Of a stretch of 64,000 nucleotides of DNA, positions 1 through 43,799 are shown in pieces. This DNA is from a virus (Duplodnaviria; Heunggongvirae; Uroviricota; Caudoviricetes), in the IMG/VR virus record IMGVR_UViG_3300042564_004737. One strand, 5' to 3'. The notes below the pieces were generated by a model. The model searched no databases. It worked only from the letters and a program-made list of their open reading frames with translations, and was not told where the DNA came from. The translations under genes were made by a program, and so were the position numbers. Numbering within the stretch: position 1 is the stretch's first letter; the number at the start of each line of letters is the position of its first letter.

Positions 1-560
1 CGACGCTCGTCGCCGTGTATTTCGCACACACGACCGTCTTCCAAGGCCAGTGTCTTGACCGGTGCTGATTCTGTGTAGATGGGTTCTTGAACCGGGGCAG
101 TGGGCATCTGAACAACAGGATCTTCTTCTGTTGGATTTTCTGCAACAGCAACAATCTGTTTGGCTATGATGCTGGAGTCTTTGGTATTTTTTTCTTTGAT
201 GTCACTGTCATTCTTGACTTTTTCTTTCAAGTCCGTGTCGTGTTTTTCCTCAGCAACACTGTCAAGATACTCGGCAAAAGATTTTTTAACTTTGTCTAAC
301 CGGTCTTCGATGGTGACCTCTTCTTCCAACACATCTTCTGGATTGTCTACACCTTCACCTGAGCCGACCATGTAGCTGCTGCCTGGAACTTTTTTATTGG
401 GGTTGCCGCCCAACACAGGACCCTGGCTGGGCATTTTGTACAGGGCCGGCATCTGCGGCACCGACTTTTGTTGAGCATTCAGCCCAGTTTTGACACTGGC
501 AGGAGTAATGCTGCCTTCAATCAAGGCCAGGCGTTGCATTATAGTGTAGATTTCGTCCAT
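1..560 (-). CDS. Acidic hypothetical protein, probably head/scaffold-associated (partial, runs off window)
   Basis: Not in ORF track. ATG at 560 gives MDEIYTIMQRLALIE-GSITP..., open to the window edge, E/D/K-rich with VAEE/VAEN linkers. Confidence 0.75.
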   Translation of the reverse strand, partial: MDEIYTIMQRLALIEGSITPASVKTGLNAQQKSVPQMPALYKMPSQGPVLGGNPNKKVPGSSYMVGSGEGVDNPEDVLEEEVTIEDRLDKVKKSFAEYLDSVAEEKHDTDLKEKVKNDSDIKEKNTKDSSIIAKQIVAVAENPTEEDPVVQMPTAPVQEPIYTESAPVKTLALEDGRVCEIHGDER

Positions 561-561
561 G

Positions 562-1002
562 TTACTCCCTAGCGTCCTTTAAGAAACTGCGCAATTGCCA
601 GGCATATTTGTTCTGCTGACTCAATCGTTCAGCCATGAAGTTGGCAATGTCCTGTTTGTTTTCAGCTTCTGCCTCAGCAAAGCAACTGTTTAACAGAGCA
701 ATCATTGGTTCACTGTCGGCCAGCAGTTCTTGTATCATCAGTTTGGCCCGTGGCACTTTTGTTTGATCTTGTATGATTGATAATTCAGCATAACGAGCAA
801 GACTGCCCGGGACGTATTCATCTAGACTGCGAATGTATTCGGCTATGGGATCCACGGCGCTGTAGGCATCTTCGTAGATTTTTTGAAAGAATTTGTGTAG
901 TTGTGCAAAGTCTGATCCTTCCACATTCCAGTGAAAGTATTGAGCTTTTAAATAGTAAGCAAATTGGCTTGCAAGCAAGGTTTTTAGTTGTTCAGTTAGC
1001 AC
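562..1002 (-). CDS. dps: Dps / ferritin-like DNA-protecting protein
   Basis: FHWNVEG..F.QLH.FF..IYE...D.IAEYIR ferroxidase signature, 146 aa. Confidence 0.9.
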   Translation of the reverse strand: MLTEQLKTLLASQFAYYLKAQYFHWNVEGSDFAQLHKFFQKIYEDAYSAVDPIAEYIRSLDEYVPGSLARYAELSIIQDQTKVPRAKLMIQELLADSEPMIALLNSCFAEAEAENKQDIANFMAERLSQQNKYAWQLRSFLKDARE

Positions 1003-1189
1003 GGCGTTTCTTTCCTTTTTTCATATAGCTCGGAGTATTGGGTGTTGGATCCGTTGTGTATTTACCAGAAAAGAAACTGCCACCAGTTCTTGTGATCGTT
1101 CCACCTAGCGGCATGGCCACAGGGGCAATGGAGCCAGCACTGGTGCTGCCTCCGGAGGCGTCTTCTTTGACGAATTCAGCTGCTCTCAT
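992..1189 (-). CDS. Small putative internal head protein
   Basis: MRAAEFVKE-D leader, Gly/Ser-rich body, basic tail KKGKKRR; overlaps neighbouring genes. Confidence 0.7.
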   Translation of the reverse strand: MRAAEFVKEDASGGSTSAGSIAPVAMPLGGTITRTGGSFFSGKYTTDPTPNTPSYMKKGKKRRAN

Positions 1190-1467
1190 CGGCTGATCCT
1201 TAATATATTGTTTTTAATTTTGCCTGTGCCATAATCCACACGCATGTTGTCAGCATGGATGACTGCTGTGTCTGTGTTGTCCAGTTGATATGTGATGGTG
1301 TATTCACCGGGCTCAGCTTCAATTTGCAACGCTTCTTCCAGATATTGATCACGCCAGATCCAGGTGCGTTCAGCAAACAATTCGTCGTCCACATACACAC
1401 GGTACACCGGCGGCGTACCTGTCCAGTCACAACTGACATCACACAATACACGAACAAACTGTTTCAT
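1186..1467 (-). CDS. Hypothetical beta-rich late protein
   Basis: 93 aa; TAAATA 4 nt upstream of ATG. Confidence 0.7.
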   Translation of the reverse strand: MKQFVRVLCDVSCDWTGTPPVYRVYVDDELFAERTWIWRDQYLEEALQIEAEPGEYTITYQLDNTDTAVIHADNMRVDYGTGKIKNNILRISR

Positions 1468-1471
1468 GCTG

Positions 1472-1477
1472 TATTTA
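1472..1477 (-). promoter_or_regulatory. T4-like late promoter core TAAATA
   Basis: ACTAAATACAGC-ATG. The same core recurs upstream of many minus-strand late genes. Confidence 0.65.
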
Positions 1478-1485
1478 GTAGCAGT

Positions 1486-1674
1486 TTACTGAACTTGTTT
1501 GATTGACCCGATGTGCCAATCTTGAATATTATATTGGGATTTAAAGATATTACGGGCTGTTGCTGCGTTGGGAGCCCAGGTTGTTACATCAACCAAAGAA
1601 ACATAGCGTGGGTTTTCAATACGGATCTTTGCAGTCCATAGTTTTGCTCCGCTGATGATTTCTTTGGCTTTCAT
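1486..1674 (-). CDS. Small hypothetical protein with MKAKEI leader
   Basis: 62 aa; TAAGTA (1680-1685) 5 nt upstream of ATG. Confidence 0.7.
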   Translation of the reverse strand: MKAKEIISGAKLWTAKIRIENPRYVSLVDVTTWAPNAATARNIFKSQYNIQDWHIGSIKQVQ

Positions 1675-1710
1675 ACTGTTACTTATGAGAATCTGCTGCG
1701 GCTGTGGGTG

Positions 1711-3249
1711 TTACAGTGCGCCCCAGGTACCGTCTTCTTTCTGTTGCGGTTTGCCAAGTCCGGTGTCCAGACCCATGCCTTTGGCTCGCATGCCTCTGAC
1801 AACTATGTTGCCATTGGGCAGGGTGATCTGTCGCTGTCCAAACGGCATGTGATATGCCTGCGGCCCGCGCTGACTCACAATGGTCTTGGTGTCAGGATTG
1901 ATTTCATACCAGTCGTCGTCGTTAAAATTGGTGGTGTGTGCTGCTTCCATCACATCATACATGGTTTGTACCATACCCGGTGTAAATTTGCGTAGATTGA
2001 TTCTGCGGGCCTCCAGCCATTTCTGCACATCAGGACGCTGAAAATCAAAAGTCTTGATTTCAGCGCCGCGATACTGTTGTTGTAGATTGGCCAACTGCTG
2101 TTCATCTTTTACTCGTGCATATACTTTTGTGCCCTCTGGCAATTTGGCGTAGAACAACATTTCTGGCTCGGTGTTTTCTGTCACACCTTCGTTTTTGGCT
2201 CGGCCTGATTTCATGTTGGCCAGCCAGTGTGCCAGTTGTCCCTTGCGTCCACCTTGCTTGGCAGTTTTGCGTAGACTGCTTACACTGGCCTTGGTGTTGA
2301 TACCGTGACGCTTGGCATCGCCCTTGTCTTGGGGATTTCGCCCATCAGCAAAGTTTTCCGCCACATCGTGTGGCCCCTTGCTGAGCTGTTTATATTGGTC
2401 AAGAATACCCTGAATATCAGTTGGTTTGCCGCCCAAGGTGATTTGAATCAAGCTACCGGGTGCTGTCTTTTTGATCTTTTTAATATCTTGTTCAATTGAG
2501 TATTTAAGAAAGCCAGGCTCAAGGTTAAACTCTCTAGCATCAAACACTACGCGAGTGTTGTCAATGGGCAAATTGCCTTTGGGATCAATTGCTTGTATTA
2601 TCACTTGGTTGGCCGGCTTTGACCGCCGCCAGGCTTCTCGTCGAGCCTCATGCGCAGCGATTCCTGCCTGACCCTCTGGAGAAGCATTATAACGGTCAAC
2701 GTCATTTTTGTATGCAACATGGATATCAGCATCAACATTGAATCCTTGGCCGTCAAGGTATTCATCCATGTCCTCTTGCACCATGGTGTCAACCATGCGG
2801 TATGCTTCTCTACCAGCTTCCATTCCACGATTGATAAAAGCATCTGCTACGCTGTTTATTTCTTCGGCATCACTTTGGTTTTGACTTGTTGTGTCCATGC
2901 CGCTGACGTCAACTAAATCAAACTCACCTTCAGCATACAATTTTGCCATTTCTTTTAGAGCTATACCATATGCATATGGTCCAGCACCTTCAGCTCCACC
3001 TGGTGCGAATTCGTTTAATAAGCCTTCCGCCACACCTTCTGACTTGTTGCCATAGTTGGCAGCACCTTTTTTGCGACACTGAACTAATCGACCGGATGCA
3101 TAGGCACTGGGCCATACTTTGGCCGATGCCTTGACCTTGTAGTAGCAGGCATCTTTTTTGCCCTCGCCTAGTTCTGAATATTCCACCACAGGTCCACCAC
3201 AGTGCGGACATTTTTGTTGTGATTCTGTAATGATATCATTTATGTTCAT
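1711..3249 (-). CDS. Modular putative internal head polyprotein (512 aa)
   Basis: Start corrected to MNINDIITE (ATGA overlap with upstream stop). Modules KKDACYYKVK...CRKKG and NFADG...LANMKSGR are separated by GVAE/DVAE/GVTE linkers. Confidence 0.8.
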   Translation of the reverse strand: MNINDIITESQQKCPHCGGPVVEYSELGEGKKDACYYKVKASAKVWPSAYASGRLVQCRKKGAANYGNKSEGVAEGLLNEFAPGGAEGAGPYAYGIALKEMAKLYAEGEFDLVDVSGMDTTSQNQSDAEEINSVADAFINRGMEAGREAYRMVDTMVQEDMDEYLDGQGFNVDADIHVAYKNDVDRYNASPEGQAGIAAHEARREAWRRSKPANQVIIQAIDPKGNLPIDNTRVVFDAREFNLEPGFLKYSIEQDIKKIKKTAPGSLIQITLGGKPTDIQGILDQYKQLSKGPHDVAENFADGRNPQDKGDAKRHGINTKASVSSLRKTAKQGGRKGQLAHWLANMKSGRAKNEGVTENTEPEMLFYAKLPEGTKVYARVKDEQQLANLQQQYRGAEIKTFDFQRPDVQKWLEARRINLRKFTPGMVQTMYDVMEAAHTTNFNDDDWYEINPDTKTIVSQRGPQAYHMPFGQRQITLPNGNIVVRGMRAKGMGLDTGLGKPQQKEDGTWGAL

Positions 3250-3533
3250 TTTTTCTTTCCTTTTGTACTGACATTTATTGCTGGGCCTGAACGATTGGCG
3301 TCGGGATCTTGTCTGCGTTTTCTGGCTGCTGCACTTGCACGACCTTTCTTGCCCAGTGCATGTGCTTTGGACTGTGGCAAACACTTGGGCTTGCCTTCAG
3401 ATTCTGACCCTCTAGCACAGTCGCCGCGTATCTTACCATCGGGACCAAAGCGTACCCATTTATCTTTGAACCAGTCGCGAAGATTTTCATTGACGTCCAC
3501 GCCGGAACCGAATGCAAATTCATACAGTCTCAT
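3246..3533 (-). CDS. Small basic Cys-containing putative internal head protein (95 aa)
   Basis: Start corrected to MRLYEF; VNE-NLRDWFKDKWVR...C...KPKCLP...RKRRQDP. Confidence 0.75.
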   Translation of the reverse strand: MRLYEFAFGSGVDVNENLRDWFKDKWVRFGPDGKIRGDCARGSESEGKPKCLPQSKAHALGKKGRASAAARKRRQDPDANRSGPAINVSTKGKKK

Positions 3534-3534
3534 G

Positions 3535-4320
3535 TCAGCAGTTCCATCTACGGCGTGCTTTGCATATGGCCTTGTCCGGAGTTTTAGCACAGCTGATGCT
3601 GTGCATTTTCATTTGACCACGGCTGCGGCTGCAATAGCTCTTACGACGTTTCGACGCCTTCGAACCTTTCTTTAATTTGCTGGGCTTGGTAGTTACAGCA
3701 GTCTTTAGTTTGGACCCGGGATTTTCTCTGCGATAAGCGTTGACAGCTTTCTGACTCATGCCGGCAGTACGATCCTTTTTGTTGGCCTTTTGCCAATCTT
3801 CCATGATTGGCGTAGTCACTGCAAACACATACAACTCATCATCTGTCAGTGAGTCGAGGTCTTCCCATATTGTCTCTGCATCTACCCCATTGCGATCTGC
3901 AAGACTGTCAATGATAGACTCTATTAGATCAAACTCTTCGTTTAGTTCCACGCGATCTGTTGCACTTACTCCTGTGCTGAGTTCCAGTATTCTTGCCAAT
4001 TCATCTTGATTTTCTGTCATTGCGGTCTCCTTTTCTTCGTTTTTAGGCACACAGTTGGGAACCATTTTGTTGCTTTTTTTCTTCATACCAACTTGTTTGT
4101 GTGTGTCCCAGCATGCTTCATCCAAGTTGTCCTGTGAATGATCGCCGTGTGTTTCACACAGGCCACACATTTCACACACCATTTCCATTTCTGCGCTTTC
4201 GTTTTGCTTCTTCTTTCCAGCGCAATGGGCCCGCTGACTAAAGCCCTTGGGATGACTGCAATTGATACTTTTTTTGTATTTTTGGCTCCAGCCTTCTGTG
4301 GTAAATTCTTTTGTTTTCAT
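3535..4320 (-). CDS. Modular putative internal head polyprotein (261 aa)
   Basis: MKTKEFTTE leader; basic Cys modules after Glu: GWSQKYKKSINC..., ACWDTHKQVGMKKK...NCVP, DWQKANKK...ARRRWNC. Confidence 0.8.
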   Translation of the reverse strand: MKTKEFTTEGWSQKYKKSINCSHPKGFSQRAHCAGKKKQNESAEMEMVCEMCGLCETHGDHSQDNLDEACWDTHKQVGMKKKSNKMVPNCVPKNEEKETAMTENQDELARILELSTGVSATDRVELNEEFDLIESIIDSLADRNGVDAETIWEDLDSLTDDELYVFAVTTPIMEDWQKANKKDRTAGMSQKAVNAYRRENPGSKLKTAVTTKPSKLKKGSKASKRRKSYCSRSRGQMKMHSISCAKTPDKAICKARRRWNC

Positions 4321-4775
4321 GTTCTTGCCAGCACAAATGGTTGATCGCTGCCAATGAACTCAAGATAGTTGTTCAAGGCCGCTGGGTATTTATCGGTGGG
4401 CACTAGTTCATATCCCTGTGCATGGCGCCGAATCATTGCGGTGTATGCACTGGATCTGCCGCCACCAGACTTGGCACTGAACGCTAGATACGGTGGTTTA
4501 TATTTTTTTGCATAGGTGTTGATAGCGTTGATCACAGTGGCCATTACTCGTCCTGCATCACCACGCCCAGTCATTTCATGTGTTCCGCCGCGAGTAAATG
4601 CTACATCAGTTACTTCACCATTGCCTGCAGGAGTAAACGATATGCCAATTTCTCTGCCGTCAGCATCTGTGGCCGACGCATGAATTTCACCTTGAGCTGC
4701 AAACTGCTGATCCCACTTTAGTGGAAATGCTGTGTCAAGATCAACTACTTCGTTTAAAAGTTCACTGGCTCTCAT
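4317..4775 (-). CDS. Putative head-packaged protein, alpha/beta domain (GNAT-like possible)
   Basis: MRASELLNE leader; TGRGDAGRVMATV...LAFSAK...RSSAY segment. Confidence 0.65.
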   Translation of the reverse strand: MRASELLNEVVDLDTAFPLKWDQQFAAQGEIHASATDADGREIGISFTPAGNGEVTDVAFTRGGTHEMTGRGDAGRVMATVINAINTYAKKYKPPYLAFSAKSGGGRSSAYTAMIRRHAQGYELVPTDKYPAALNNYLEFIGSDQPFVLART

Positions 4776-5659
4776 AGTCCAATCTTTCCTGGGTACATGG
4801 GTCCAGATTCAACTCGTTCGCCGCCATCAAAGTAACTGATTTGCACAGGCAGTTCTTTCCAACCCAGGGCAGCAGCAGCCATGATACGATGATTACCTTC
4901 GTTGACCCAAGCACTGCCATCGTAGGCCACATTGATAAAAGGCTTGTATTCTTCATTAGTAAAACTATGCAGTGGCAATTTGCCAGTGTCTTTCATTATT
5001 TTCATAATGGCTGCTAGATCCGCTTGTCGTACATTTTGCTGTTCGTTTCGCATGCCCGGTAGTCGCTTGAGTATATCCATGGATACCATTGGTTCAGGTC
5101 TAACAGTAGCAGTGGTCTTGCCCATGTAGGGCAACCCGTTGCGGTCGGGACTTTTTTGCTTGGCATACGCAATAGCATCGTCAAGCCATTCTTCGTTGGG
5201 TACATCAACTCTGAGTTCTTCCGCCAGCTCGGGGCTCCATTGCATTGCTTTGCCACCTTTGACAGTTGGAGAAAAGCCTTGTCCTCGGTAGAATTTGGTC
5301 AGTTTACTTTGGCTTACTTGTCCTTTGTCCCAGGGGAATAATGTAAGGCTGATTCCATCTTCTCGGGCCATGGCTTGCAGTTCTTTCATAGCACGACTGC
5401 CCACCCCAGACCGTAGCGGATACGCTTGAAACCATTTGACTTCAACTGCGCCACGCCGGCTGAAGCTAGGAGTTAATTCAAACATTGCAAACTGTTGGTC
5501 ATCTCCCGAGCCCCAGGTCATCACATGATTGTTCTGCATGGTTTGCGGATAACGGGCATACACCTTTTCAATCCAGGTTCGTGCCCGGGCTGCTGCTTCA
5601 GCACCACCAATCTTGATTCTTGCTGGTTCGTCTTCGTGTAAAAATTCTAGTGCTCTCAC
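4772..5659 (-). CDS. GNAT acetyltransferase + ParB/Srx-like domain fusion (295 aa)
   Basis: GTG start overlapping upstream TGA gives MRALEFLHE. GNAT motifs RSGVGSRAM and FYRGQGF; ParB-like WVNEGNHRIMAA. Confidence 0.75.
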   Translation of the reverse strand: MRALEFLHEDEPARIKIGGAEAAARARTWIEKVYARYPQTMQNNHVMTWGSGDDQQFAMFELTPSFSRRGAVEVKWFQAYPLRSGVGSRAMKELQAMAREDGISLTLFPWDKGQVSQSKLTKFYRGQGFSPTVKGGKAMQWSPELAEELRVDVPNEEWLDDAIAYAKQKSPDRNGLPYMGKTTATVRPEPMVSMDILKRLPGMRNEQQNVRQADLAAIMKIMKDTGKLPLHSFTNEEYKPFINVAYDGSAWVNEGNHRIMAAAALGWKELPVQISYFDGGERVESGPMYPGKIGL

Positions 5660-8600
5660 GACGGCTCCATGACTGGCACAACCGCAACTTCGATACCATC
5701 TTGGTATCCTGCACGAGCCAGCCATCCTGCTGCAACTCTGTTGGCATCTGCTTGTGAATTGCCAATGCCGCTGAAGGTGTGTAGTGTATTGCCTTGGCTG
5801 TCTTTGATTGCCCATGTGCCTCTAAATGTTCCACTAGCGGCAGATTGCTGTGCTGCTTGTTGACGTTGGCGTTGCAGATCCAGGGTGCTACCAGGAACAA
5901 AGTTCTGTTCTACATCTGGCTCAATGTCAATGACGCCGGGCACAGGTGTTGTGGCCACAGGACCTTGAATTGGTGTGTCAATTGGTGCGTATCTAAAGTC
6001 ATCTCTGCCGCCAGCTTCGGGACTCATCAACCAGTCAGTGAATTCAGCATTGGCCTGTGCTTGATCAGCAGCATAGAATGTGCCCACTGTTCTACCATCA
6101 GAGATTTGATAGATCTTGTAGTTGCTTTGTCCGGGCGTGAGTTCAGCATAGGTATCTTTGACCTTGTTGCGTTCCAGTTGTGCTTGTTTGATAAAACTCT
6201 TTAGTGCAGCCTTGGGCAATTCACCAGCAGCAAATTTAGCAAAATAACTCAAGGTATCATTTTGGTCTTTAGGCTTGAGTACAGTGTACAGCTTCTTCAG
6301 GTATTCGTCGCGATACTTTGCCGGATCCATGGCAGCATCTAATGCCACTACAAATCTCAACAGCGTGGTTTCAATCTTGTCAAAGTTTTCATTTAGCCAA
6401 TCGCCGCCGGGACTGCGAAACTCAATGTATCCAGTCTTGGTATTGATACTGGTATACTTGCTGGTCGTGCCGCTGTGTATAACTTTGGTGGCCAGTTCGC
6501 CCAGGCCTGTTTTCATTTTTTGCAACATGGCAGCAGCATCTTCGGGACGCTGAGCGATTCGCTCTTTGATCATGCCCATGGCGCTTTTGGCATAGGTGTT
6601 GCCGGTGCGTCCAAATTGATCCAGCACATACTGGTCACCCAGCAGCAGAGCTAGTTTAACATAGTCCAGTTTGTCGTTGTCAAAGCCCGGCACACTCACA
6701 TTGATGTGCAGGCCGGTTGAATCATTGGTGTAGCAGCCTCGTTGTTTGGCCCAGGCCCGGACCTTGTTTAGATCACTAATCATGTCGTCAACAGGCAAGG
6801 GCGGGCTCACAAACTCCAGTCCAGAATCGTTGCTGTCATCTGGTTCCAGGCTGCCGTCAGGCTCAACCACATAAGCATCGGGTTCGCGGCGGCCACCATG
6901 ATAGTTGGCAGACCAGTTTACCTTGCGACCAATGGCCTCACGGAATTCATCAGCAACTTCTTCAATGCTGGCGCCTTCGCTGCCAGGAGTGCTCCAATAG
7001 GGCCAGGAAATATCGTACTGACTCGAAACATCGCTCATTGAGCGAATGCCTTCACTTCTCAGCCAATCCTCTTCATGATCATCATTGTAATAGTCTTCTT
7101 GTGCATCTTCCTGCGCATCATTCAGCCAGGGATCCAAACCGTCTTCAATGACTTTTTCGGCAGCGTCCATGTAATCTTCAGGGCTTGCTCCACGATTTTC
7201 CAACGCTTCTGCTGCGGCTTCGTCCAGGCCCAATATTTCAGCAATGTCTGCCTCTGACCAATTTTCTTTGCCGTATCTAAACACAATGGTGTTTTTGTAG
7301 GTTTCAAAATACTCCATCCATGCATCGCCTAGCCATGTCTGATAATCTTCGCTCATGCTGTCACGCAGGCGTTGAATGTCTCTTCGACCGTTGAAGTCAC
7401 CGTCAAAAAAGAACTGCGCTGCATCTTCGATGCTCATGACATTTTCGTCGGCGTCGTAGTCGGGTTCCATATCCGCAGCATCGTCGCCGCCATCAGCACC
7501 GGGCACAATCATCTCAAATTCCATGCCAGCCATGGCGCCTGTTTGTGCTGCCAGTTTCTTTAGATTTGTGGGACTCATGTTGATTTCAAACAGGTCCTGA
7601 TCTTCATACAGTTTCAGTTCACGACTCAGGCGGTTGACTATATCACGGTGTTCAGTGTCATCTTCGGCCAGGTGTTGCTTCAACACATTCATCTGTTCGA
7701 TGCCGCCCCGGCTCAACTGAAACCCATTCATCCTGGCTCGTTCAATTCGTGTCTTTTGGCTGGGGTGACTGCTGGTAGGTGACTGTGTCAGAACATCCAA
7801 CAGTTGCAATTCTGCTTCGTTCTTGGCAATGAATTTGAATACTTCGGCCTTGTTGTAGCCCAGTGTCTTGCACAGGCGCACTGCGAACTCGTCTGCGTCT
7901 AGTTCGCCTTGCCGATACTGTGCAGCCACTCGTACTTGAGTCTTGTAGTCCGCTGACGCATCATCGGTACCAGTGGCATGTTCCAGGGCAATGTGTCCCA
8001 GCTCATGTGCTATGGTAAATGCCAAGGCCGCATCTGGAGCATCCCAGAACACCGAAAGATCAATAGTGATGGTGCGCGAAATTGCACTGGCCTGTGCATA
8101 ATTTTCACTTGAGACTACACGAATGGTAGTGCCTTTCAACAGCGGCGCCCATTTGGGGCCTGCTGCTGCAATCAATTGGCGCAGGATGTCTTGGCATCGA
8201 GTAGTGAGTTCTTTGTACCTGGGCACCCATACTTTGTTGAACTGGTCAGGATTGGTGTTTCCTAGGGCAGCAACATCCACAAAAGGTCCGGCTTTGGCCA
8301 CGCCCGGTACCGCAGCAGCCATTGCGCCTGCACCCAACGCTTTTAACGCAGCCCGGCGATCAACTTCGGACAAGTCATCTTCAGCCACATTGTATGTGGG
8401 GTCAGTCCGTTGCCGCTGCATGCGATCTTCACGCAGGTTGGCAGTCTTCATCAACAGTGCCGGCTTGCCTTGCGTGTCTGTGCGAAGGTTTAATTTGTTG
8501 GCTTCTCGACCTGTGGCACCAGGTTGTACATCTTTTGTAAGAGCCATGCTAAAGCGTGGATCTCTAGCTTGTTTTTTTGTTGGAATATAACCAGAACTTT

Positions 8601-9999
8601 CATTGGCATTTGCACCACGGCGCAGCACATTCTTAAGTTCTTGTTTTGCTCCGTGTTCCAACCCAGCACGAGTCAATTGGCTGGCTCGCACAGCAGCCTT
8701 CACAGCGTCAGCGCCAGTGTTGATCGGAGTGGTTGTGGCGCAGCCTGGTGAACCAGCAACACATGCTGCCAATGCAGCCGTGGCTAACTTGTCCCGGATA
8801 CCTTCTTCTAACCCGTCATCGTTGAAAAACTCCGGATGCTGTTCGGCATAGTCACGCATCAGCACACCGGCCTGGGCGTTGGCTTGATTTTCCCATCGGC
8901 TACCAGTGGCGCCGGCAGTGTCTGGCACTGTTTCTATTTCGTGTTGTCTGGTGTGGGTGAGTTCATGTGCCACTGTGCGCAATATGTCCATCACATGGCG
9001 TCCAGCTAGGCTCACTTCCAATAGATTATGGTCAGAATTGTAACGGCCAAAAGTTTTGTTACGAGCGCTCCACTGCGGATCCTTCTTGAACTTCACTTGA
9101 GGCGGTTGCTCAATGCCCAACTGCTCCACACAGTAATCAATGAACGATGACACAATGTCAACGACACTGGCTGCGGGCTTTTCGCTTAAGAACATTTTTG
9201 TTTCGGGGCTCACACCACTGGGATTGCTGCTGACATCTTCAGTTTTGAATCCGTATGTGAATGGTCGTTTAACAACTATTTCACGCTCACGCAGGCTCAA
9301 CTCCCGGTCTCTGGCAGCGTTTCTAGCGTCAATCAATCGTTTGATAGCGCCTTGGTTGCGCAGCATTTTGAATGCTAGATTATCTGCACCAAACTCGCCA
9401 TGCTGATTCAGTCCGGCTTGTCGCATGGCTTTGATTTTGCTCATCAATTTGGCCATGTCATCATGATCACCAGATGCAACAGCACTATCAATTCGTGCAG
9501 CCAAATCTTCGTATTTGCTGCGAGTGGATATGTCATCTACTCCAGCATCTCTACGCTTGGGCACATCAATCCATTGATTGTTCAACACACTGTAAATGCC
9601 TTGACTCACATGTGTTTTATTAGCATCTTGTACATACAGTTCCACAGGATGACTGCCAATGGTGATGTTGTGCTGTTGGTTGTATTGAAACTTTTTAGCA
9701 TCAAACAGTTCGCGATACACTTCGCTGTTGTCAGCTTCGGGCAAATCAACCACCAGGTGTAGATCGATGTCAGAATTGGGAGTGTATGTGTACGCAGCAT
9801 TGGATCCGCTGATGGTTATATCTTTGAGATCGTATCCGCTTACTCCTAAAAACTCGCGGAAATCATCAGCTATTTGCAGCAAATGATCATGCACTTCGGG
9901 CCGTAACTGTTCGTTGTTGTCCCACAGACGCGGATTCAAACGCTGGTTAAACTTAACAGCGTCGGCCAAATTGTAGGAATCAAGTTCAAGAATATTCAT
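5656..9999 (-). CDS. Polyvalent polyprotein (1447 aa): Pol-beta nucleotidyltransferase, HExxH metallopeptidase, Tat-like signal + M48-like protease, amidoligase
   Basis: Start corrected to MNILEL, 7 nt after TAAATA. Motifs: GSNA...SDIDLH; AHELTH (8953-8967); DRRAALKALGAG...AKA; AHELGH (7993-8007) with SHPS..RI; GMEFE, PDGSL, EFVSPP, TGLHINV, EFRSPGG. Confidence 0.85.
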   Translation of the reverse strand: MNILELDSYNLADAVKFNQRLNPRLWDNNEQLRPEVHDHLLQIADDFREFLGVSGYDLKDITISGSNAAYTYTPNSDIDLHLVVDLPEADNSEVYRELFDAKKFQYNQQHNITIGSHPVELYVQDANKTHVSQGIYSVLNNQWIDVPKRRDAGVDDISTRSKYEDLAARIDSAVASGDHDDMAKLMSKIKAMRQAGLNQHGEFGADNLAFKMLRNQGAIKRLIDARNAARDRELSLREREIVVKRPFTYGFKTEDVSSNPSGVSPETKMFLSEKPAASVVDIVSSFIDYCVEQLGIEQPPQVKFKKDPQWSARNKTFGRYNSDHNLLEVSLAGRHVMDILRTVAHELTHTRQHEIETVPDTAGATGSRWENQANAQAGVLMRDYAEQHPEFFNDDGLEEGIRDKLATAALAACVAGSPGCATTTPINTGADAVKAAVRASQLTRAGLEHGAKQELKNVLRRGANANESSGYIPTKKQARDPRFSMALTKDVQPGATGREANKLNLRTDTQGKPALLMKTANLREDRMQRQRTDPTYNVAEDDLSEVDRRAALKALGAGAMAAAVPGVAKAGPFVDVAALGNTNPDQFNKVWVPRYKELTTRCQDILRQLIAAAGPKWAPLLKGTTIRVVSSENYAQASAISRTITIDLSVFWDAPDAALAFTIAHELGHIALEHATGTDDASADYKTQVRVAAQYRQGELDADEFAVRLCKTLGYNKAEVFKFIAKNEAELQLLDVLTQSPTSSHPSQKTRIERARMNGFQLSRGGIEQMNVLKQHLAEDDTEHRDIVNRLSRELKLYEDQDLFEINMSPTNLKKLAAQTGAMAGMEFEMIVPGADGGDDAADMEPDYDADENVMSIEDAAQFFFDGDFNGRRDIQRLRDSMSEDYQTWLGDAWMEYFETYKNTIVFRYGKENWSEADIAEILGLDEAAAEALENRGASPEDYMDAAEKVIEDGLDPWLNDAQEDAQEDYYNDDHEEDWLRSEGIRSMSDVSSQYDISWPYWSTPGSEGASIEEVADEFREAIGRKVNWSANYHGGRREPDAYVVEPDGSLEPDDSNDSGLEFVSPPLPVDDMISDLNKVRAWAKQRGCYTNDSTGLHINVSVPGFDNDKLDYVKLALLLGDQYVLDQFGRTGNTYAKSAMGMIKERIAQRPEDAAAMLQKMKTGLGELATKVIHSGTTSKYTSINTKTGYIEFRSPGGDWLNENFDKIETTLLRFVVALDAAMDPAKYRDEYLKKLYTVLKPKDQNDTLSYFAKFAAGELPKAALKSFIKQAQLERNKVKDTYAELTPGQSNYKIYQISDGRTVGTFYAADQAQANAEFTDWLMSPEAGGRDDFRYAPIDTPIQGPVATTPVPGVIDIEPDVEQNFVPGSTLDLQRQRQQAAQQSAASGTFRGTWAIKDSQGNTLHTFSGIGNSQADANRVAAGWLARAGYQDGIEVAVVPVMEPS

Positions 10000-10006
10000 T
10001 ATGTAA

Positions 10007-10012
10007 TATTTA
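10007..10012 (-). promoter_or_regulatory. Late promoter core TAAATA
   Basis: GCTAAATATTACATA-ATG of the 1447-aa gene. Confidence 0.65.
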
Positions 10013-10066
10013 GCGCAAATGGAAAAGCCACTGTTAAAGTGGCTTTGTGGAGTGTTGCAGTTTGTT

Positions 10067-13667: not shown

Positions 13668-14357
13668 TTATCCTTGTACGATGGTATTTGTCTTTTTTAT
13701 CAAACGAGAGTTGATCAAGCTCAACATGGTCAAACAAGCAGCGTCATTATGATCAATGAAATAGTAAGGTTCTGTCCATTTGAACGGCTGTGTTGTCCAA
13801 TCGGCCAAACAGGGACTCAGTCTGAAATCAGCACGGTTATTGTTTAAGAACTGCACAATCGATTGCTTTTGCTGATCGGTCAGTTTTGCTCTTGCAAAAT
13901 AGCTGCGATACTGATGTTGTGGATTCTTCAATGTCACAGTGTCTCGCACACGATCAATCACGGCCTGTTTATAATTGACCCATGCAAAATGACCCACAGC
14001 CAACAACTGATCAAACAACACAGCATCGTTTGTGTACAGACGAATGTTGCCCCATTCCACTAGCAATTTGAAAGGATATGCAGTGTCTATCAGCAGTTGA
14101 CAAATTTTGTGTAAATTGTCAATTACATCAGCGGGCATGCCGGGGTTTCTGGCAGACAGCAGGGGGGTGTGATAGGTGCGGCGCATCTGTACCACTTCAT
14201 CTATCCACTTGTGTGTGAGCCGTCGCAGACAAGTGGCTTCGCTAAGGCCAGCGGTCATGCAATACCTGTATTGATCGAAAAATAAGCGATCTCTACTGAC
14301 GGATTGAAATTCAGACAGCAGGGGCATCGAGTAAAATATATCCTTTTCCGTCCACAA
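13668..14357 (-). CDS. Hypothetical protein
   Basis: 229-aa ORF tiling after clpA; start uncertain (14327 possible). Confidence 0.65.
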   Translation of the reverse strand: MWTEKDIFYSMPLLSEFQSVSRDRLFFDQYRYCMTAGLSEATCLRRLTHKWIDEVVQMRRTYHTPLLSARNPGMPADVIDNLHKICQLLIDTAYPFKLLVEWGNIRLYTNDAVLFDQLLAVGHFAWVNYKQAVIDRVRDTVTLKNPQHQYRSYFARAKLTDQQKQSIVQFLNNNRADFRLSPCLADWTTQPFKWTEPYYFIDHNDAACLTMLSLINSRLIKKTNTIVQG

Positions 14358-16584
14358 TTGGCAGGGGACCAGTCAGCGGTTTGGTCACAAACATCAGCTC
14401 GTCAGCAACCATGATGGCCAATATAGAACAGTCTTTGATCTGATCAAACAGTATGCGCTTGCTGAGCGGAACACGAATCAGTTCGTCAATCTTGCGACTC
14501 AGCGGTCTAGCACCCATCTTGGGATCGTATCCTTTTTCCGACAGCATGTTGATAACACTTTCATCAAACATCAGCTTGATGTTCTTGGCGTACAGGCTCT
14601 GCTGTAGTTCTCGTGTGAACTTGACCACAACTTTCTTGATGGCCAATGGATCCAACTTGTTGAACTTGCACACAGCATCAATGCGGTTACGCAGTTCCGG
14701 CTTGAAGAAGTCTTTCATTGCACGATCTTCTTCGCCGTATTTTTCCAACGATTTGCCAAAGCCAATGTTGTTGTTTTCATTGTCTCTGGCACCTAAATTA
14801 CTGGTCATGATGATGATGCAGTTTTTAACATCAACTGATTTGCCACTGCTGCCAGTAATTTTGGCTTCGTCCAGCATCTGCAACATGATGTTGACCACGT
14901 CAGGATGTGCCTTTTCAATTTCATCAAACAGCAGCACACTGAATGGGTTCTTGGATATGTCACTGATCAATTTGCCGCCGCCCACATTGCCGTCATCAAA
15001 GCCCACATAGCCCGGCGGTGCACCAATCAAGCTGGCAATGCTGTGCTTTTCCTGAAACTCGCTCATGTCATATTTCAGCAGGTGCATGTCAAGATTCTCT
15101 GCCAGCAGCTTGGCCAATTCTGTTTTGCCTGTGCCAGTTGGACCCAGGAACAAAAAGCTGGCCACCGGCTTTTTGGGATTGCCAATGCCAGAGAAGTTGA
15201 TGTACACTCGTTCCAGCACAGTGTCAATTGCTGCATCCTGCCCGTACAGGAATTGTTTGACATTGCTTTCAAGTTCGGTAATTTTGATACTGCGTTCGTT
15301 TTGCAAGCGGTCCAGTGGAATACTGGTCACACGGCTGACCTGTGCCATGATCATGTGTTTGTTCACTGTGACTGTGCCTTGATCCAACACTCGCTGTGCA
15401 GCACAGGCACCGTCCAGCAGATCAATTGACTTGTCAGGATTCTTACGATCGTGTATGTAGCGTCCACTCAGTTCCACTGCTGCACACATGGCGTCTGTGT
15501 CAATCATCACATTGTGGAATGATTCCAGTCTAGGGCTGATGCCAATCAGGATCTGCTCAGTGGTGGCAGCATCCGGCTCACCAATGGTGACTCTGTGAAA
15601 ACGGCGCATTAGCGCACGATCACGCTCGAATGATTCGTAGTATTCTTCCCAGGTGGTACTGGCAATCACTTTCAAGTTGCCACTGGTGATGGCCGGTTTG
15701 ATCATGTTGGCAAAGTCCAGACTGCTGGATCCACTGGCACCCGCACCCATCATGGTGTGTGCTTCGTCAATGAACAGCACACAGTTCTTCTTGGTTTTCA
15801 ATGCTGTGATAACATCTTTGAACTTTTCTTCAAACTCGCCGCGATACTTGCTGCCAGCCAACAGGGATCCAATTTCCAGTCCCCAAACTTCTGCACCTTT
15901 GAGAAACTCTGGCACAGAGCCAGCATGAATTTCTTGTGCCAGTCCGTCAATGATGGCAGTTTTGCCCACACCCGGATCGCCCACCATCAGCACATTGGCC
16001 TTGAACTTGCGGGCCAGCACAGTGATCATTTCTTCCAGTTCGGCTGTGCGCCCAATCATGGGTTCAAGTTGACCTTCGGCTGCTCTGCGACTCAAATTGA
16101 CACAGTGTTCTTCAAGAATTTCGTCGGCCTTGGCGCTGGTCAATTCCACATCAGTGATGTTGTAATTCTTTTGGAAGAATTCAGCAAATTCTGTTTTGCG
16201 AACATTATACTTCAACAAGTAGTAATGTGCATGGCTGTTGGTTTCAGACATCATGGCCAAATACAAGTCCAACAAGGTAATTGTTCTACGGCCCGTGAAC
16301 AGTACCTGTGTCAGCGCCCGATTAAACACTCGCTCCAGTGCATTGGTTTTGCGTGGGGGATCTGTGCGGTCTGTCAACAGGCTGGTTTGACTCTGCAGGT
16401 AGTTGTGCAATTCAGATTCTAGTTGTTCAACTGGTGTTCCGTATTTTTCTAGTATTTTGCGGAACGATGGATACTGTACCATGGCCAGCAGCACATGTTC
16501 TGTCAGCACATATCCGTGTTTGTGTCCCACAGCAATGGCAGTGGCGTTGTTGACTACAGCATCGATTTCTGGATTATTTTGCAT
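14311..16584 (-). CDS. clpA: ClpA-like ATP-dependent Clp protease ATP-binding subunit
   Basis: Clp N-domain, Walker A GDPGVGKT and GPTGTGKT, KYRGEFEE, FIDEAH, FDEIEKAHP, IGF loop, GARPL; no ClpB middle domain. Confidence 0.9.
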   Translation of the reverse strand: MQNNPEIDAVVNNATAIAVGHKHGYVLTEHVLLAMVQYPSFRKILEKYGTPVEQLESELHNYLQSQTSLLTDRTDPPRKTNALERVFNRALTQVLFTGRRTITLLDLYLAMMSETNSHAHYYLLKYNVRKTEFAEFFQKNYNITDVELTSAKADEILEEHCVNLSRRAAEGQLEPMIGRTAELEEMITVLARKFKANVLMVGDPGVGKTAIIDGLAQEIHAGSVPEFLKGAEVWGLEIGSLLAGSKYRGEFEEKFKDVITALKTKKNCVLFIDEAHTMMGAGASGSSSLDFANMIKPAITSGNLKVIASTTWEEYYESFERDRALMRRFHRVTIGEPDAATTEQILIGISPRLESFHNVMIDTDAMCAAVELSGRYIHDRKNPDKSIDLLDGACAAQRVLDQGTVTVNKHMIMAQVSRVTSIPLDRLQNERSIKITELESNVKQFLYGQDAAIDTVLERVYINFSGIGNPKKPVASFLFLGPTGTGKTELAKLLAENLDMHLLKYDMSEFQEKHSIASLIGAPPGYVGFDDGNVGGGKLISDISKNPFSVLLFDEIEKAHPDVVNIMLQMLDEAKITGSSGKSVDVKNCIIIMTSNLGARDNENNNIGFGKSLEKYGEEDRAMKDFFKPELRNRIDAVCKFNKLDPLAIKKVVVKFTRELQQSLYAKNIKLMFDESVINMLSEKGYDPKMGARPLSRKIDELIRVPLSKRILFDQIKDCSILAIMVADELMFVTKPLTGPLPIVDGKGYILLDAPAV

Positions 16585-22024: not shown

Positions 22025-22647
22025 ATTACTGTTACTGTTATGTCCGATGCTGCATAATTTTGCCAATGTTCTTCTGGCGGCAGTGCAATGCCCAAGGTCT
22101 TGCATAATTGCTGATTGTTTGAAACCTGTTGCGGATTGTGACTATCAGCTATGACCTGGTCAATGCAGTGATTCTGCTGTTTGATTTGTACTGCCATGTT
22201 TTTTAAATCAACATAGTAGTTATCATACCGGGGGTATGTGATGTTAAAATGACCGCATTTGACCCACCATCCTAGGCAGGCATCATTACTGCGTTGCACC
22301 AATACTATGGGTGATTCGGGAAATATGGCTCGTAGAAAATCAATGTGGTTGCAAAAGATATGGCTCTTGATAATTCGTATTCCGGTTGCATTTTTATCAA
22401 ACGGATAGTCAAAACTTTCTTCAAGCTGCGGACGGCTCAACACAGTGAGATCTTCGGGCAGTGGGCATGCCATGCCAGGATCCCAGTATGCTCCCAGGTG
22501 CATGAGTTCACGCTGGCCCGATGCATCATGCCAATAGGTCCATTCATCACGATAGTCCGAGCGATCGATACTGGCGCTGTAGTAGATGTTTTTGCTCACG
22601 CTGCTCCATTTAGAACCCGGCGCACCAGCTAGAAAAATATACTTCAT
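22021..22647 (-). CDS. Sulfotransferase-like P-loop protein
   Basis: IFLAGAPGSKWS (5'-PSB-like), IIKSH, IVLVQR...WW (3'-PB-like); motifs are divergent. Confidence 0.55.
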   Translation of the reverse strand: MKYIFLAGAPGSKWSSVSKNIYYSASIDRSDYRDEWTYWHDASGQRELMHLGAYWDPGMACPLPEDLTVLSRPQLEESFDYPFDKNATGIRIIKSHIFCNHIDFLRAIFPESPIVLVQRSNDACLGWWVKCGHFNITYPRYDNYYVDLKNMAVQIKQQNHCIDQVIADSHNPQQVSNNQQLCKTLGIALPPEEHWQNYAASDITVTVI

Positions 22648-23597
22648 TCGGGTTTGATCCGTCGAGCAACTGGTTGCCAGGTCTGTTGTAGTCGTGCCAT
22701 ACTGGCACGGACACCAGCCGGTGTATGTTCAACAGGGGTTGTGTACATCATGTTTTCTCGAAACTTGGCCGCAGCTTCGGCTGATCGTATAGCAGGAACA
22801 AAATTATCTTGATACCATGTTTGTATTTCTTGAGGAGTACCGGGTGGTAATACCATGTTCCAGCAGCCATGAATACTGAGCCCTGGTGCAGCCTTGCTCA
22901 TTAGTGGAATATTTTCCAATCCTGCTAGTGGTTGAGTATCAGCAATTCCAATGAATTTGAGTTTGCCTGCTTTGACCAGCGGGTATCCCACAGCCACAGG
23001 AGTTACACCAAACTCCACATGCCCGCCCATGACATCTAGCAAGGCCTGTGCAGGACCTTTGTACATTATAGTTTGCAGGTTGTCACTGCCGGGTACACTT
23101 ACTTTGTCCACAAGATATTCCACTGCCAGTTTGTGACCGCCACCTCCTATAGCCACTGACATTTTTTGCCGATTGCGAATGGCTGCAACAAATTCTTCAG
23201 GGGTGTTAATCTTGCTCGAAGGATGCGCCCAGAATGCCAAGGGACTGCGAGCAATGTTGGCAATGGGTTCTAGGTCCATGGGATTGTACTTGATCATGTT
23301 GAGATACCATACTTCGGGTGTGACCCAGTTTGACTGGCAAGCTGGCACTGCAATGGTATGTCCGTCTCGCGGCACTGTTACAAAGTGATTGATAGCAATG
23401 TTGCCATCCGCACCTGGCCGGTGTTCTGCCTTGAATACGATACCGGTCTTTCTTTCCACAATGTCAGCCACAATACGGAATGATATTTCATTGCCGGCAC
23501 CGGGTCCATTGGGGTAGACAACTGTGACGGGCTTGGTGGGTTGCCAAGCTGCCGCCATTAGCGGGGCCAGCAGAAGTGATACTAGTAATTTTTTCAT
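22644..23597 (-). CDS. tctC: Bug/TctC tripartite tricarboxylate transporter substrate-binding protein
   Basis: Signal peptide, P..GAG.., RPGADG.I, YKGPAQALLDVMGGHV, GTP..I. Confidence 0.85.
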   Translation of the reverse strand: MKKLLVSLLLAPLMAAAWQPTKPVTVVYPNGPGAGNEISFRIVADIVERKTGIVFKAEHRPGADGNIAINHFVTVPRDGHTIAVPACQSNWVTPEVWYLNMIKYNPMDLEPIANIARSPLAFWAHPSSKINTPEEFVAAIRNRQKMSVAIGGGGHKLAVEYLVDKVSVPGSDNLQTIMYKGPAQALLDVMGGHVEFGVTPVAVGYPLVKAGKLKFIGIADTQPLAGLENIPLMSKAAPGLSIHGCWNMVLPPGTPQEIQTWYQDNFVPAIRSAEAAAKFRENMMYTTPVEHTPAGVRASMARLQQTWQPVARRIKPE

Positions 23598-43088: not shown

Positions 43089-43799
43089 TTAGTCCAACGC
43101 TTGTGCATATCTATCTATCCACAACTCACAAGCTGCAATATGTGCATCTTCAAGCGGATGCAGGCCAACTTTGGTAACCTCAAATCCCTTGTTATAACTC
43201 CAGTCAATAAAATTTTGACCTTCAAACAGTTCTAAGTTTGGTTTGACCAATGCTTGTAATTCTTTTACATAGTCAGGAGAATGAATATCATATTCTTGGT
43301 CAAACATCATATAATCCATATATGTTTGTATACTGTTGATATTTTTACTTTTTAAATATGATTGCACAGCAAATATGGTCTGTAAGTTTCTAAACTTGTT
43401 CCACAGAATACTACTGTTAGCACGATGTTTATAAAAATCTATCATGTCTTCTGCCTGCGTGTGTGATACAAGATCTTTTAGTTTTTCCGGAACACAAGTT
43501 GGGCCCAGTGTAATCCATGTTTCGGCTTGTCCAATGTAAAAGTCCCATCGGCTACACCAGGTCCAATTAATTACTGCCAGTGTGTCCTCCACCGGATTAT
43601 TTGCAACATATGAATATATCTGTCGAGCAATATGATCGTTGCCACACCCGGGAATAGAAAATGTTTTGTACGCAACACCTAGTCTAGTTGCAGCTCTGCC
43701 AATCCATCCCAACGACCCATCATTGTTGTGTTGTTGCTCGGATCCGAACACAAAACTGTCACCAAAACTTACTATTTTTTTATCTGACAGATTAAACAT
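43089..43799 (-). CDS. SGNH/GDSL-hydrolase-like protein
   Basis: FGDSFVFG, GCGN, HPLEDAH; paralog at 24395. Confidence 0.7.
   Translation of the reverse strand: MFNLSDKKIVSFGDSFVFGSEQQHNNDGSLGWIGRAATRLGVAYKTFSIPGCGNDHIARQIYSYVANNPVEDTLAVINWTWCSRWDFYIGQAETWITLGPTCVPEKLKDLVSHTQAEDMIDFYKHRANSSILWNKFRNLQTIFAVQSYLKSKNINSIQTYMDYMMFDQEYDIHSPDYVKELQALVKPNLELFEGQNFIDWSYNKGFEVTKVGLHPLEDAHIAACELWIDRYAQALD

Follow-up and report, generated by a model that had tools for sequence, protein, structure and literature searches.

The DNA stretch analyzed here (hereafter the window) comprises 64,000 nucleotides of a virus of the Caudoviricetes (IMG/VR record IMGVR_UViG_3300042564_004737) and is the reverse strand of bases 2240-66239 of this 340,172-bp viral record, which is rated 98% complete. 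At its beginning, a string of minus-strand genes encodes proteins that are unrelated to each other outside a nine-residue N-terminal leader (BLASTP). This work describes the leader in the window, in the remainder of the genome and in related viral loci, and weighs its likely role as a capsid-targeting propeptide of the type known from phage T4.

The locus and its leader

All nine N-termini that the initial annotation had listed for the locus were found at their minus-strand starts (Table 1). The full motif, M-[RKN]-x-x-[ED]-[FLI]-x-x-E, is present at five of these starts (5659, 4775, 4320, 3249 and 1189). An extended version is found at 3533 (g99a), which matches the first six motif positions (MRLYEF) and has V-N-E at residues 14-16; its orthologues begin with MKSHEFITE or MKSSEFITE. 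A leader shared by all nine genes, as first claimed, is thus limited to these six, the genes starting at 9999, 1674 and 560 lacking a full tag. The leader ends in aliphatic-x-Glu at 5659, 4775, 3249 and 1189 and in T-T-E at 4320; such an end is missing at 9999 and 1674.

The GTG start at 5659 does overlap the TGA stop of the upstream gene of 1447 amino acids (aa) as GTGA, and the starts at 4775, 4320, 3249 and 1189 overlap the preceding stop as ATGA, resulting in tightly coupled genes. Orthologues in related contigs start with ATG at the same residues, which supports the corrected starts, including those at 9999 and 5659. The string is tight but not tagged throughout, as it contains an untagged Dps/ferritin-like gene and an untagged 93-aa gene starting at 1467.

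Table 1. Features of the leader-bearing locus and other features of the window, with positions counted in the window
Feature	Position	Strand	Description
g95, 1447 aa, predicted polyvalent protein	5656..9999	-	Pfam and PHROG matches; N-terminus MNILELDSY
CTAAATA, T4-late-promoter-like heptamer	10007..10013	-	14 nt upstream of the g95 ATG
g96, 295 aa, GTG start	4772..5659	-	Leader MRALEFLHE, codons 5633-5659
g97, 152 aa	4317..4775	-	Leader MRASELLNE; no recognizable domain
g98, 261 aa	3535..4320	-	Leader MKTKEFTTE; small Cys-rich module, C-terminal DUF6321
g99a, 95 aa	3246..3533	-	Extended leader MRLYEFAFGSGVDVNE
g99b, 512 aa	1711..3249	-	Leader MNINDIITE; Zn-ribbon-like module
g100, 62 aa	1486..1674	-	Degenerate leader MKAKEIISG, no Glu at position 9
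g101, 93 aa	1186..1467	-	No leader; interspersed gene with promoter-like motifs upstream
g102, 65 aa	992..1189	-	Leader MRAAEFVKE
Dps/ferritin-like protein, 146 aa, GTG start	562..1002	-	No leader; Pfam PF00210, E 5e-22
g104, 232 aa in all	1..560	-	N-terminal 186 residues in the window; N-terminus MDEIYTIMQRLALIE
ClpB-like double-AAA+ protein	14311-16584	-	
TctC-type binding protein	22644-23597	-	
Radical-SAM protein	43799-45349	-	

The incomplete N-termini differ in kind. That of g100 is degenerate, its orthologues having the full leader. The N-terminus of g104 is distinct, longer and conserved, ends in an L-I-E site and may be a longer propeptide. In g95, only positions 1-6 are leader-like, without (I/L/V)-x-E at positions 7-9, and orthologues begin with MNFHDLDNY, MNINELETY and similar sequences at the start of their open reading frames (ORFs). 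As a tag, the g95 N-terminus was downgraded, given that its conservation goes along with that of the nucleotidyltransferase domain and that the cut site is missing. For the Dps-like protein, the N-terminus is the conserved first helix of the fold; its gene lies beside tagged genes in 34 of 80 related loci.

The leader was initially described as a reusable tag on unrelated enzymes. It does sit on unrelated proteins (about 50 families, see below), but recognizable enzyme domains are present in only two or three cargo proteins, namely g95, weakly g96, and an HD-domain protein at 291 kb of the genome. Pfam searches with E-values up to 5 gave nothing convincing for g96, g97, g99a/b, g100, g102, g104, g106, g284, g285 and g344. 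The g96 protein is composed of two domains joined at P-E-L-A-E/E-L-R, of which the N-terminal half is tentatively GNAT-like and the C-terminal half tentatively ParB/sulfiredoxin-like. These assignments come from weak Foldseek matches (E 0.004-0.1) of an AlphaFold2 model of low confidence (predicted local distance difference test score of 61), in which the leader and the interdomain linker are placed in disordered segments.

A CTAAATA heptamer upstream of g95 is possibly the late promoter of the tightly coupled g95-g100 string. Genome-wide, NTAAATA is about 12-fold enriched upstream of genes, with many structural genes among them. A second class of upstream motif, the sigma-70-like (TG)CTATAAT(A), precedes 37 genes, mostly outside the locus.

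The leader in the remainder of the genome

The pattern ATGARRN6GARYT, which renders the first six leader codons as DNA, has four matches in the 64-kb window, always at the starts described above, whereas shuffles of the window give an expectation of 0.76 and none out of 100 reached four. When the genome was scanned, as the initial annotation had suggested, a loose form of the motif was found in 15 of the 438 genes called with a simple gene caller, eight of them in this locus. This genome carries one nine-residue tag on a dozen unrelated proteins.

The locus, first taken to span 10 kb, is larger than that and is not the sole site. It runs past window position 1 to about 71.1 kb of the genome (g106, L003:5783-6142) and measures about 15 kb, or 19 kb if the doubtful candidate g109 is counted (327 aa, N-terminus MKLSELIAYRNQLLE, weak methyltransferase match, beyond the DNA polymerase gene at 74.3-75.3 kb). 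Past the window start it encodes a 1466-aa LysM-containing protein beginning with MILNELYKLNE (L003:1378-5778, genome 66378-70778) and a 119-aa protein beginning with MRASEFAIVKE. The first seven residues of the LysM protein, MILNELY, are shared with a 73-aa core protein beside the protease gene, and its orthologues begin with MKTNEFLTE, followed by LS. The locus is flanked by genes for nicotinamide mononucleotide (NMN) adenylyltransferase, a phosphoesterase and a glycosyltransferase on one side and by that for DNA polymerase on the other.

Further tagged genes are located at 234 kb (MRATEFVLE and MRAREFIAE, beside terminase-region genes), at 283 kb (MRLREFAE) and at 291 kb (MKINELLES, on the HD-domain protein). 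Two tagged proteins of about 125 aa each, of the MRATEFVLE and MRAREFIAE types, are encoded in tandem (L004:1156-1913, genome 234156-234913), a pair that is widely conserved and found in 37 related loci. Outside the window, a 4812-aa ORF with a GTG start (genome 153279-167717, minus strand) probably encodes a giant virion protein like gp355 of Pseudomonas phage PA5oct; its N-terminus, VRTVDFLPE, fits the leader pattern, possibly by coincidence.

The phage and its head genes

The genome encodes a gp23-type major capsid protein (E 8e-99) with 65-71% identity to those of Sinorhizobium phage Phosso, Vibrio phage 2.275.O, Pseudomonas phage PA5oct (67%), Xanthomonas phage XaC1 and Pectobacterium phage CBB. 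Judged by this protein, the source is a distant T4-type jumbo phage of the PA5oct/Rak2-like assemblage. The locus itself gave no megablast match to cultured phages. Within 19 residues of its N-terminus, the capsid protein displays two L-L-E/G sites (E then G), pointing to a propeptide much shorter than that of T4 gp23.

A gp21-family prohead protease is encoded as well (L001:1456-2103; Pfam Peptidase_S77, PF03420; E 9e-25, 84.9 bits), in which the His, Ser and Asp motifs of T4 gp21 are all kept. Its N-terminus has V-K-L-L-S-E/D (suspected cut after E), which aligns with Q-L-L-I-E/T of T4 gp21, a suspected autocleavage site (L001:17-2103; L099, T4 genes 67, 68, 21). Between portal and protease lie core-like genes, as part of a gp22/gp67/gp68-like core module. 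Two core proteins have leader-like N-termini, namely the 73-aa protein just upstream of the protease (MILNELYQ) and a 253-aa protein near it (MTSKFEQLIE).

The leader in related viral loci

Related loci were gathered in two sets. The first consists of 80 viral loci from a search with g96, and the counts below refer to these loci and the genome unless stated otherwise. The second was fetched independently with an exact DNA pattern for MRAxEFIxE, which matched at least 119 further viral stretches, compared with only a handful expected by chance on a rough estimate; 80 loci were examined. The two sets together comprise 160 leader-bearing related loci.

In the relatives, a half of g96 can be a protein of its own, be joined to the other half or be joined to other domains. 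ORFs of the g96 type nearly always begin with MRAxEF(I/L/V)xE (e.g. MRAQEFIAE, MRAKEFITE, MRAREFLSE), and when the domain is internal, the leader heads the whole ORF and not the domain. An alignment of full-length and half g96 proteins has only M1, R2, A3, E5, F6 and E9 as columns common to all rows. ORFs of at least 60 aa contain 201 copies of the 8-residue core; 174 of these copies directly follow a start codon, 163 of which lie within 30 codons of an upstream stop. Of the 98 DNA-pattern matches of the second set, 96 form the beginning of an ORF of at least 50 aa, and 89 of the 98 are likewise N-terminal.

For testing positions 7-9, 167 distinct N-termini were selected on positions 1-6 only. 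Position 7 is I, L or V in 128 and position 9 is Glu in 113, many of the remaining N-termini having a cut site one to three residues later. Past position 9 there is no conservation. The leader consensus of the clade is M-R-A-x-E-F-(I/L/V)-x-E, the exact nine-residue form being confined to uncultured contigs as far as seen. The tagged proteins, which reach about 900 aa in relatives, form 26 linkage clusters and about 50 families of N-terminal domains. Their genes are hypervariable between relatives, with cassette-like gain and loss. Peptidase_S77 is encoded by all nine long leader-bearing contigs rated at least 66% complete (CheckV); the one long leader-bearing contig without it is a fragment rated 41% complete. 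As the nine belong to one clade, this represents consistency and not independent proof.

The shared start could also be a feature of the nucleic acid, either a translation-initiation enhancer or a recombination joint for cassette swapping. The cassette-like turnover would fit such a joint, and ATGAGAGC...GAATT recurs at the DNA level. Codon 2 is also biased, with AGA as 93% of Arg codons (background 27%) and AAA as 100% of Lys codons (background 66%), so part of the conservation lies at the mRNA level. Synonymous codon use at E5, F6, I7 and E9, however, equals the background, indicating selection on the protein. In addition, domain junctions inside ORFs, which are not sites of initiation, show the x-x-E boundary again, and the motif matches an experimentally defined protein signal (PMC9026906). 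A purely nucleic-acid origin is very improbable, and the codon-2 preference suggests a translation-initiation preference added to the protein signal.

We regard it as equally improbable that the leader is a recognition tag for another phage enzyme or chaperone, such as a radical-SAM/SPASM maturase or a ClpB/ClpA-type unfoldase. In 9 of 37 loci, a radical-SAM-like gene does occur no more than about 2 kb from the pair of the g284/g285 type, as it does in this genome (g289, 237067), and the ClpB-like gene of the window is 4 kb from the locus. Over the 160 leader-bearing loci, however, a radical-SAM homologue is present in only 14, and the nine neighboring cases share terminase-region synteny and are thus not independent. 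The leader moreover ends in a protease cut motif and resembles the T4 leader.

Polyvalent proteins and interdomain sites

By its predicted domains, g95 qualifies as a polyvalent protein as defined by Iyer et al. 2017. It comprises an NTP_transf_2 nucleotidyltransferase, SprT-like/M78 and M48/M78-like Zn-metallopeptidase motifs and an Amidoligase_2 domain (Pfam), with PHROG matches to other polyvalent families. The large PHROG families 727, 3477 and 10346 are matched in separate segments by g98, g99a, g99b and g106, whose homologues in related contigs are parts of multidomain ORFs. In other phages, the modules of g98 also form part of polyvalent proteins and are preceded there by V-A-E or L-D-E, and g99b has an internal boundary at residue 299 (D-V-A-E/NFADG) that matches the leader cut point of a separately encoded homologue.

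To quantify such boundaries, multidomain ORFs were aligned with separately encoded homologues, and the position opposite the first residue after the homologue's leader was examined for [ILV]-x-E within two residues. The motif is present at 100 of 180 distinct junction contexts, versus 11 of 180 random positions in the same ORFs (maximum 23 in 200 trials) and 0-18 when the junction positions are shifted by 10 to 30 residues. Since many contexts are orthologous, the 100 out of 180 overstates their independence; the tally by domain family, with sites in 18 of 21 families, does not. The g96 and g99b boundaries given above are examples. These sites support, without proving, that the head protease cuts polyproteins between domains.

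Packaging into the capsid has already been predicted for polyvalent proteins (Iyer, Burroughs, Anand, de Souza, Aravind 2017; PMC5512222). These authors tie packaging to MuF/portal fusions and to autoproteolysis by the proteins' own metallopeptidase domains, and do not mention a CTS (capsid-targeting sequence). The present g95 resembles their proteins in joining several unrelated enzyme domains in one polypeptide. The difference is that modules of the locus have a T4-type leader in front of them as separate genes and an (I/L/V)-x-E site as parts of a larger protein, which points to the prohead protease as the processing enzyme. Of the packaging hallmarks used by Iyer et al., neither virion or packaging-gene neighbors nor a MuF/portal fusion was seen here, and domain searches of the locus proteins gave no MuF or portal domain.

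A further, tentative proposal, possible rather than probable, is that this phage clade draws its head cargo from a stock of small domains, every one of them behind an aliphatic-x-Glu site, which are encoded alone with a leader or strung into a polyvalent polyprotein; one leader would load them all, and the prohead protease would cut the interdomain sites inside the capsid. If so, gene fission and fusion would be nearly neutral, since every resulting piece would retain a leader or acquire one again. The rapid shuffling of these loci would thereby be explained, and the processing enzyme of polyvalent proteins identified.

Virion data of phage PA5oct

The record of PA5oct flags 93 virion proteins as "ESI-MS/MS" (PMC7318152). 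Thirteen of its coding sequences (CDS) start with M-[RKN]-x-x-[ED]-[FILVM], and seven of the thirteen are virion proteins, compared with 93 of 445 (21%) overall (hypergeometric P = 0.008). These seven are gp333 (MKINDIITE), gp246 (VKIKDILVE), gp104 (MKILEFNLTE), gp105 (MRLNEINLIE), gp279, gp254 and gp309. The leader of g99b, MNINDIITE, comes close to the start of gp333, which is encoded between portal and protease and is homologous to the 73-aa core protein described above. The PA5oct homologues of both the 73-aa and the 253-aa core protein are virion proteins, and these two are the only ones with PA5oct homologues; the cargo proteins have none, which is what a hypervariable group would lead one to expect. 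Neither leaders nor processing are addressed in the PA5oct paper (PMC7318152).

These data bear on two further explanations. The leader might send proteins elsewhere in the infected cell (membrane, replication compartment, secretion), unrelated to the head. Nothing specific favors this, beyond the leader being short, amphipathic and N-terminal like many sorting signals. It has no hydrophobic core and no signal-peptidase site, the phage is T4-type and not nucleus-forming, and PA5oct proteins with such N-termini are found in virions; we consider another destination extremely unlikely.

Alternatively, the leader targets the prohead core, but the tagged proteins are assembly or scaffold parts, or are degraded during maturation, and are not delivered to the host. 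The leader-like N-termini of the two core proteins beside the protease and the presence of their PA5oct homologues in the virion would agree with this, as would T4 gp67, gp68 and gp22, which are cut to peptides. However, multi-enzyme polyvalent proteins, a ParB-like/GNAT-like protein and an HD hydrolase are among the cargo; these fit effectors better than scaffold, as does the hypervariability of the cargo between relatives. A role limited to assembly is thus unlikely.

Interpretation

We consider it likely that the nine-residue leader is a T4-type capsid-targeting propeptide that is removed by the head protease, a reading that rests on the analogy with T4 and on the indirect virion data of PA5oct. 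The core idea of one reusable, T4-like tag on unrelated proteins is favored by all tests run: the T4-type head genes with their protease, the closeness to the T4 leader, the strict N-terminal position, the use on about 50 domain families, selection on the protein and the enrichment among PA5oct virion proteins. The disorder of the leader in the g96 model and the presence of Peptidase_S77 in the nine long contigs also agree with it. As for T4 IPI-III, Alt and gp24, the leader would bind the scaffolding core during prohead assembly, so that the attached protein is enclosed. The gp21-family prohead protease would then cut after the final Glu (Glu9), and the mature cargo would stay in the head with the DNA and probably enter the host with it. 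The locus would accordingly represent a hyperplastic cargo region, with further tagged genes beside terminase and structural genes.

Several observations, in addition to the codon-2 bias, weigh against this reading. Three proteins of the locus (g95, g100 and g104) are without a canonical tag or cut site. The locus sits among nucleotide-metabolism and replication genes, and the evidence for a late promoter is weak. Tyr4 of T4, which is important for targeting, has no counterpart here. A scan for the strict DNA pattern of the leader came up empty in four cultured relatives (Vibrio phage 2.275.O, Sinorhizobium phage Phosso, Xanthomonas phage XaC1 and Pectobacterium phage CBB) and in T4, so that the link to experiments is one of analogy. 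Finally, six of the thirteen motif-bearing PA5oct CDS were not detected in virions, the motif class being looser in that phage.

Should the tag function as it does in T4, sequence alone would be enough to list the proteins that a large group of uncultured jumbo phages packages in the head and probably injects, including candidates for anti-defense and host takeover that have no other annotation. The T4 signal would then be much older and more widespread than the T-even phages, and would be connected to polyvalent proteins, i.e. to their route into the capsid and their processing enzyme. The natural leader variants could also serve for loading proteins into phage heads in the laboratory.

Comparison with known systems

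The principle of a capsid-targeting leader is already known from T4 (Mullaney & Black 1996, reviewed in PMC9026906 and PMC3012670). For packaging, the initial 10 residues of T4 IPIII are enough, residues 4 and 7 of the leader matter for targeting and residues 8 and 10 for processing, and the tag is perhaps a general route by which T4-like phages load varied proteins (PMC9026906). The internal proteins of T-even phages are diverse and defense-related, with only the tag in common (PMC3012670), and proteases of the gp21 family cleave after Glu (PMC5694885). The short propeptides of Alt and gp24 belong to the same known system as the CTS of IPI-III.

In the T4 record, IPII and IPIII begin with MKTYQEFIAE, as the initial annotation had it, IPI with MKTFKEFTS...ITE and gp24 with MAKINELLRE. 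These compare with MRAREFIAE, MKTKEFTTE (g98, alongside MKTFKEFTS of IPI) and MKINELLES in this genome and with MRAQEFIAE in relatives, some of which read QEFIAE exactly as T4 does. Aligned in this way, the present leader equals the T4 tag minus one residue: F7, I8 and E10 of T4, three of the four experimentally important positions, correspond to F6, I/L/V7 and E9, and the fourth, Tyr4, is unmatched. The T4 propeptides measure 10-19 residues (10 in IPII and IPIII), compared with nine here. Both systems place a short N-terminal leader on unrelated, hypervariable proteins, with a core E-F-(I/L/V)-x-E and the gp21 cut motif (aliphatic-x-Glu) at its end, and both phages have a gp21-family protease and a gp22/gp67/gp68-like core module. 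The present leader differs in having Ala at position 3 and mostly Arg, encoded by AGA, at position 2. It is also carried by many more families (about 50 sampled) and, in relatives, by proteins of up to about 900 aa, and it belongs to a distant jumbo-phage clade related to PA5oct and Rak2.

Phages of the phiKZ type (phiKZ, 201phi2-1, SPN3US) also have many head-internal proteins, enzymes included, which are loaded by means of N-terminal propeptides that a gp21-family protease cuts after Glu (PMC5694885). Their propeptides, however, are mostly longer than 100 residues and do not share one short portable consensus. Their cut motif is (S/A/G)-x-E, with a small residue at P3 where the present leader has an aliphatic one, and they belong to another phage lineage (PMC5694885). 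Compared with these systems, what is new here is how closely the leader of a distant jumbo clade matches the T4 tag, how many cargo families carry it, and the connection of the tag with polyvalent proteins and with cut sites between domains.

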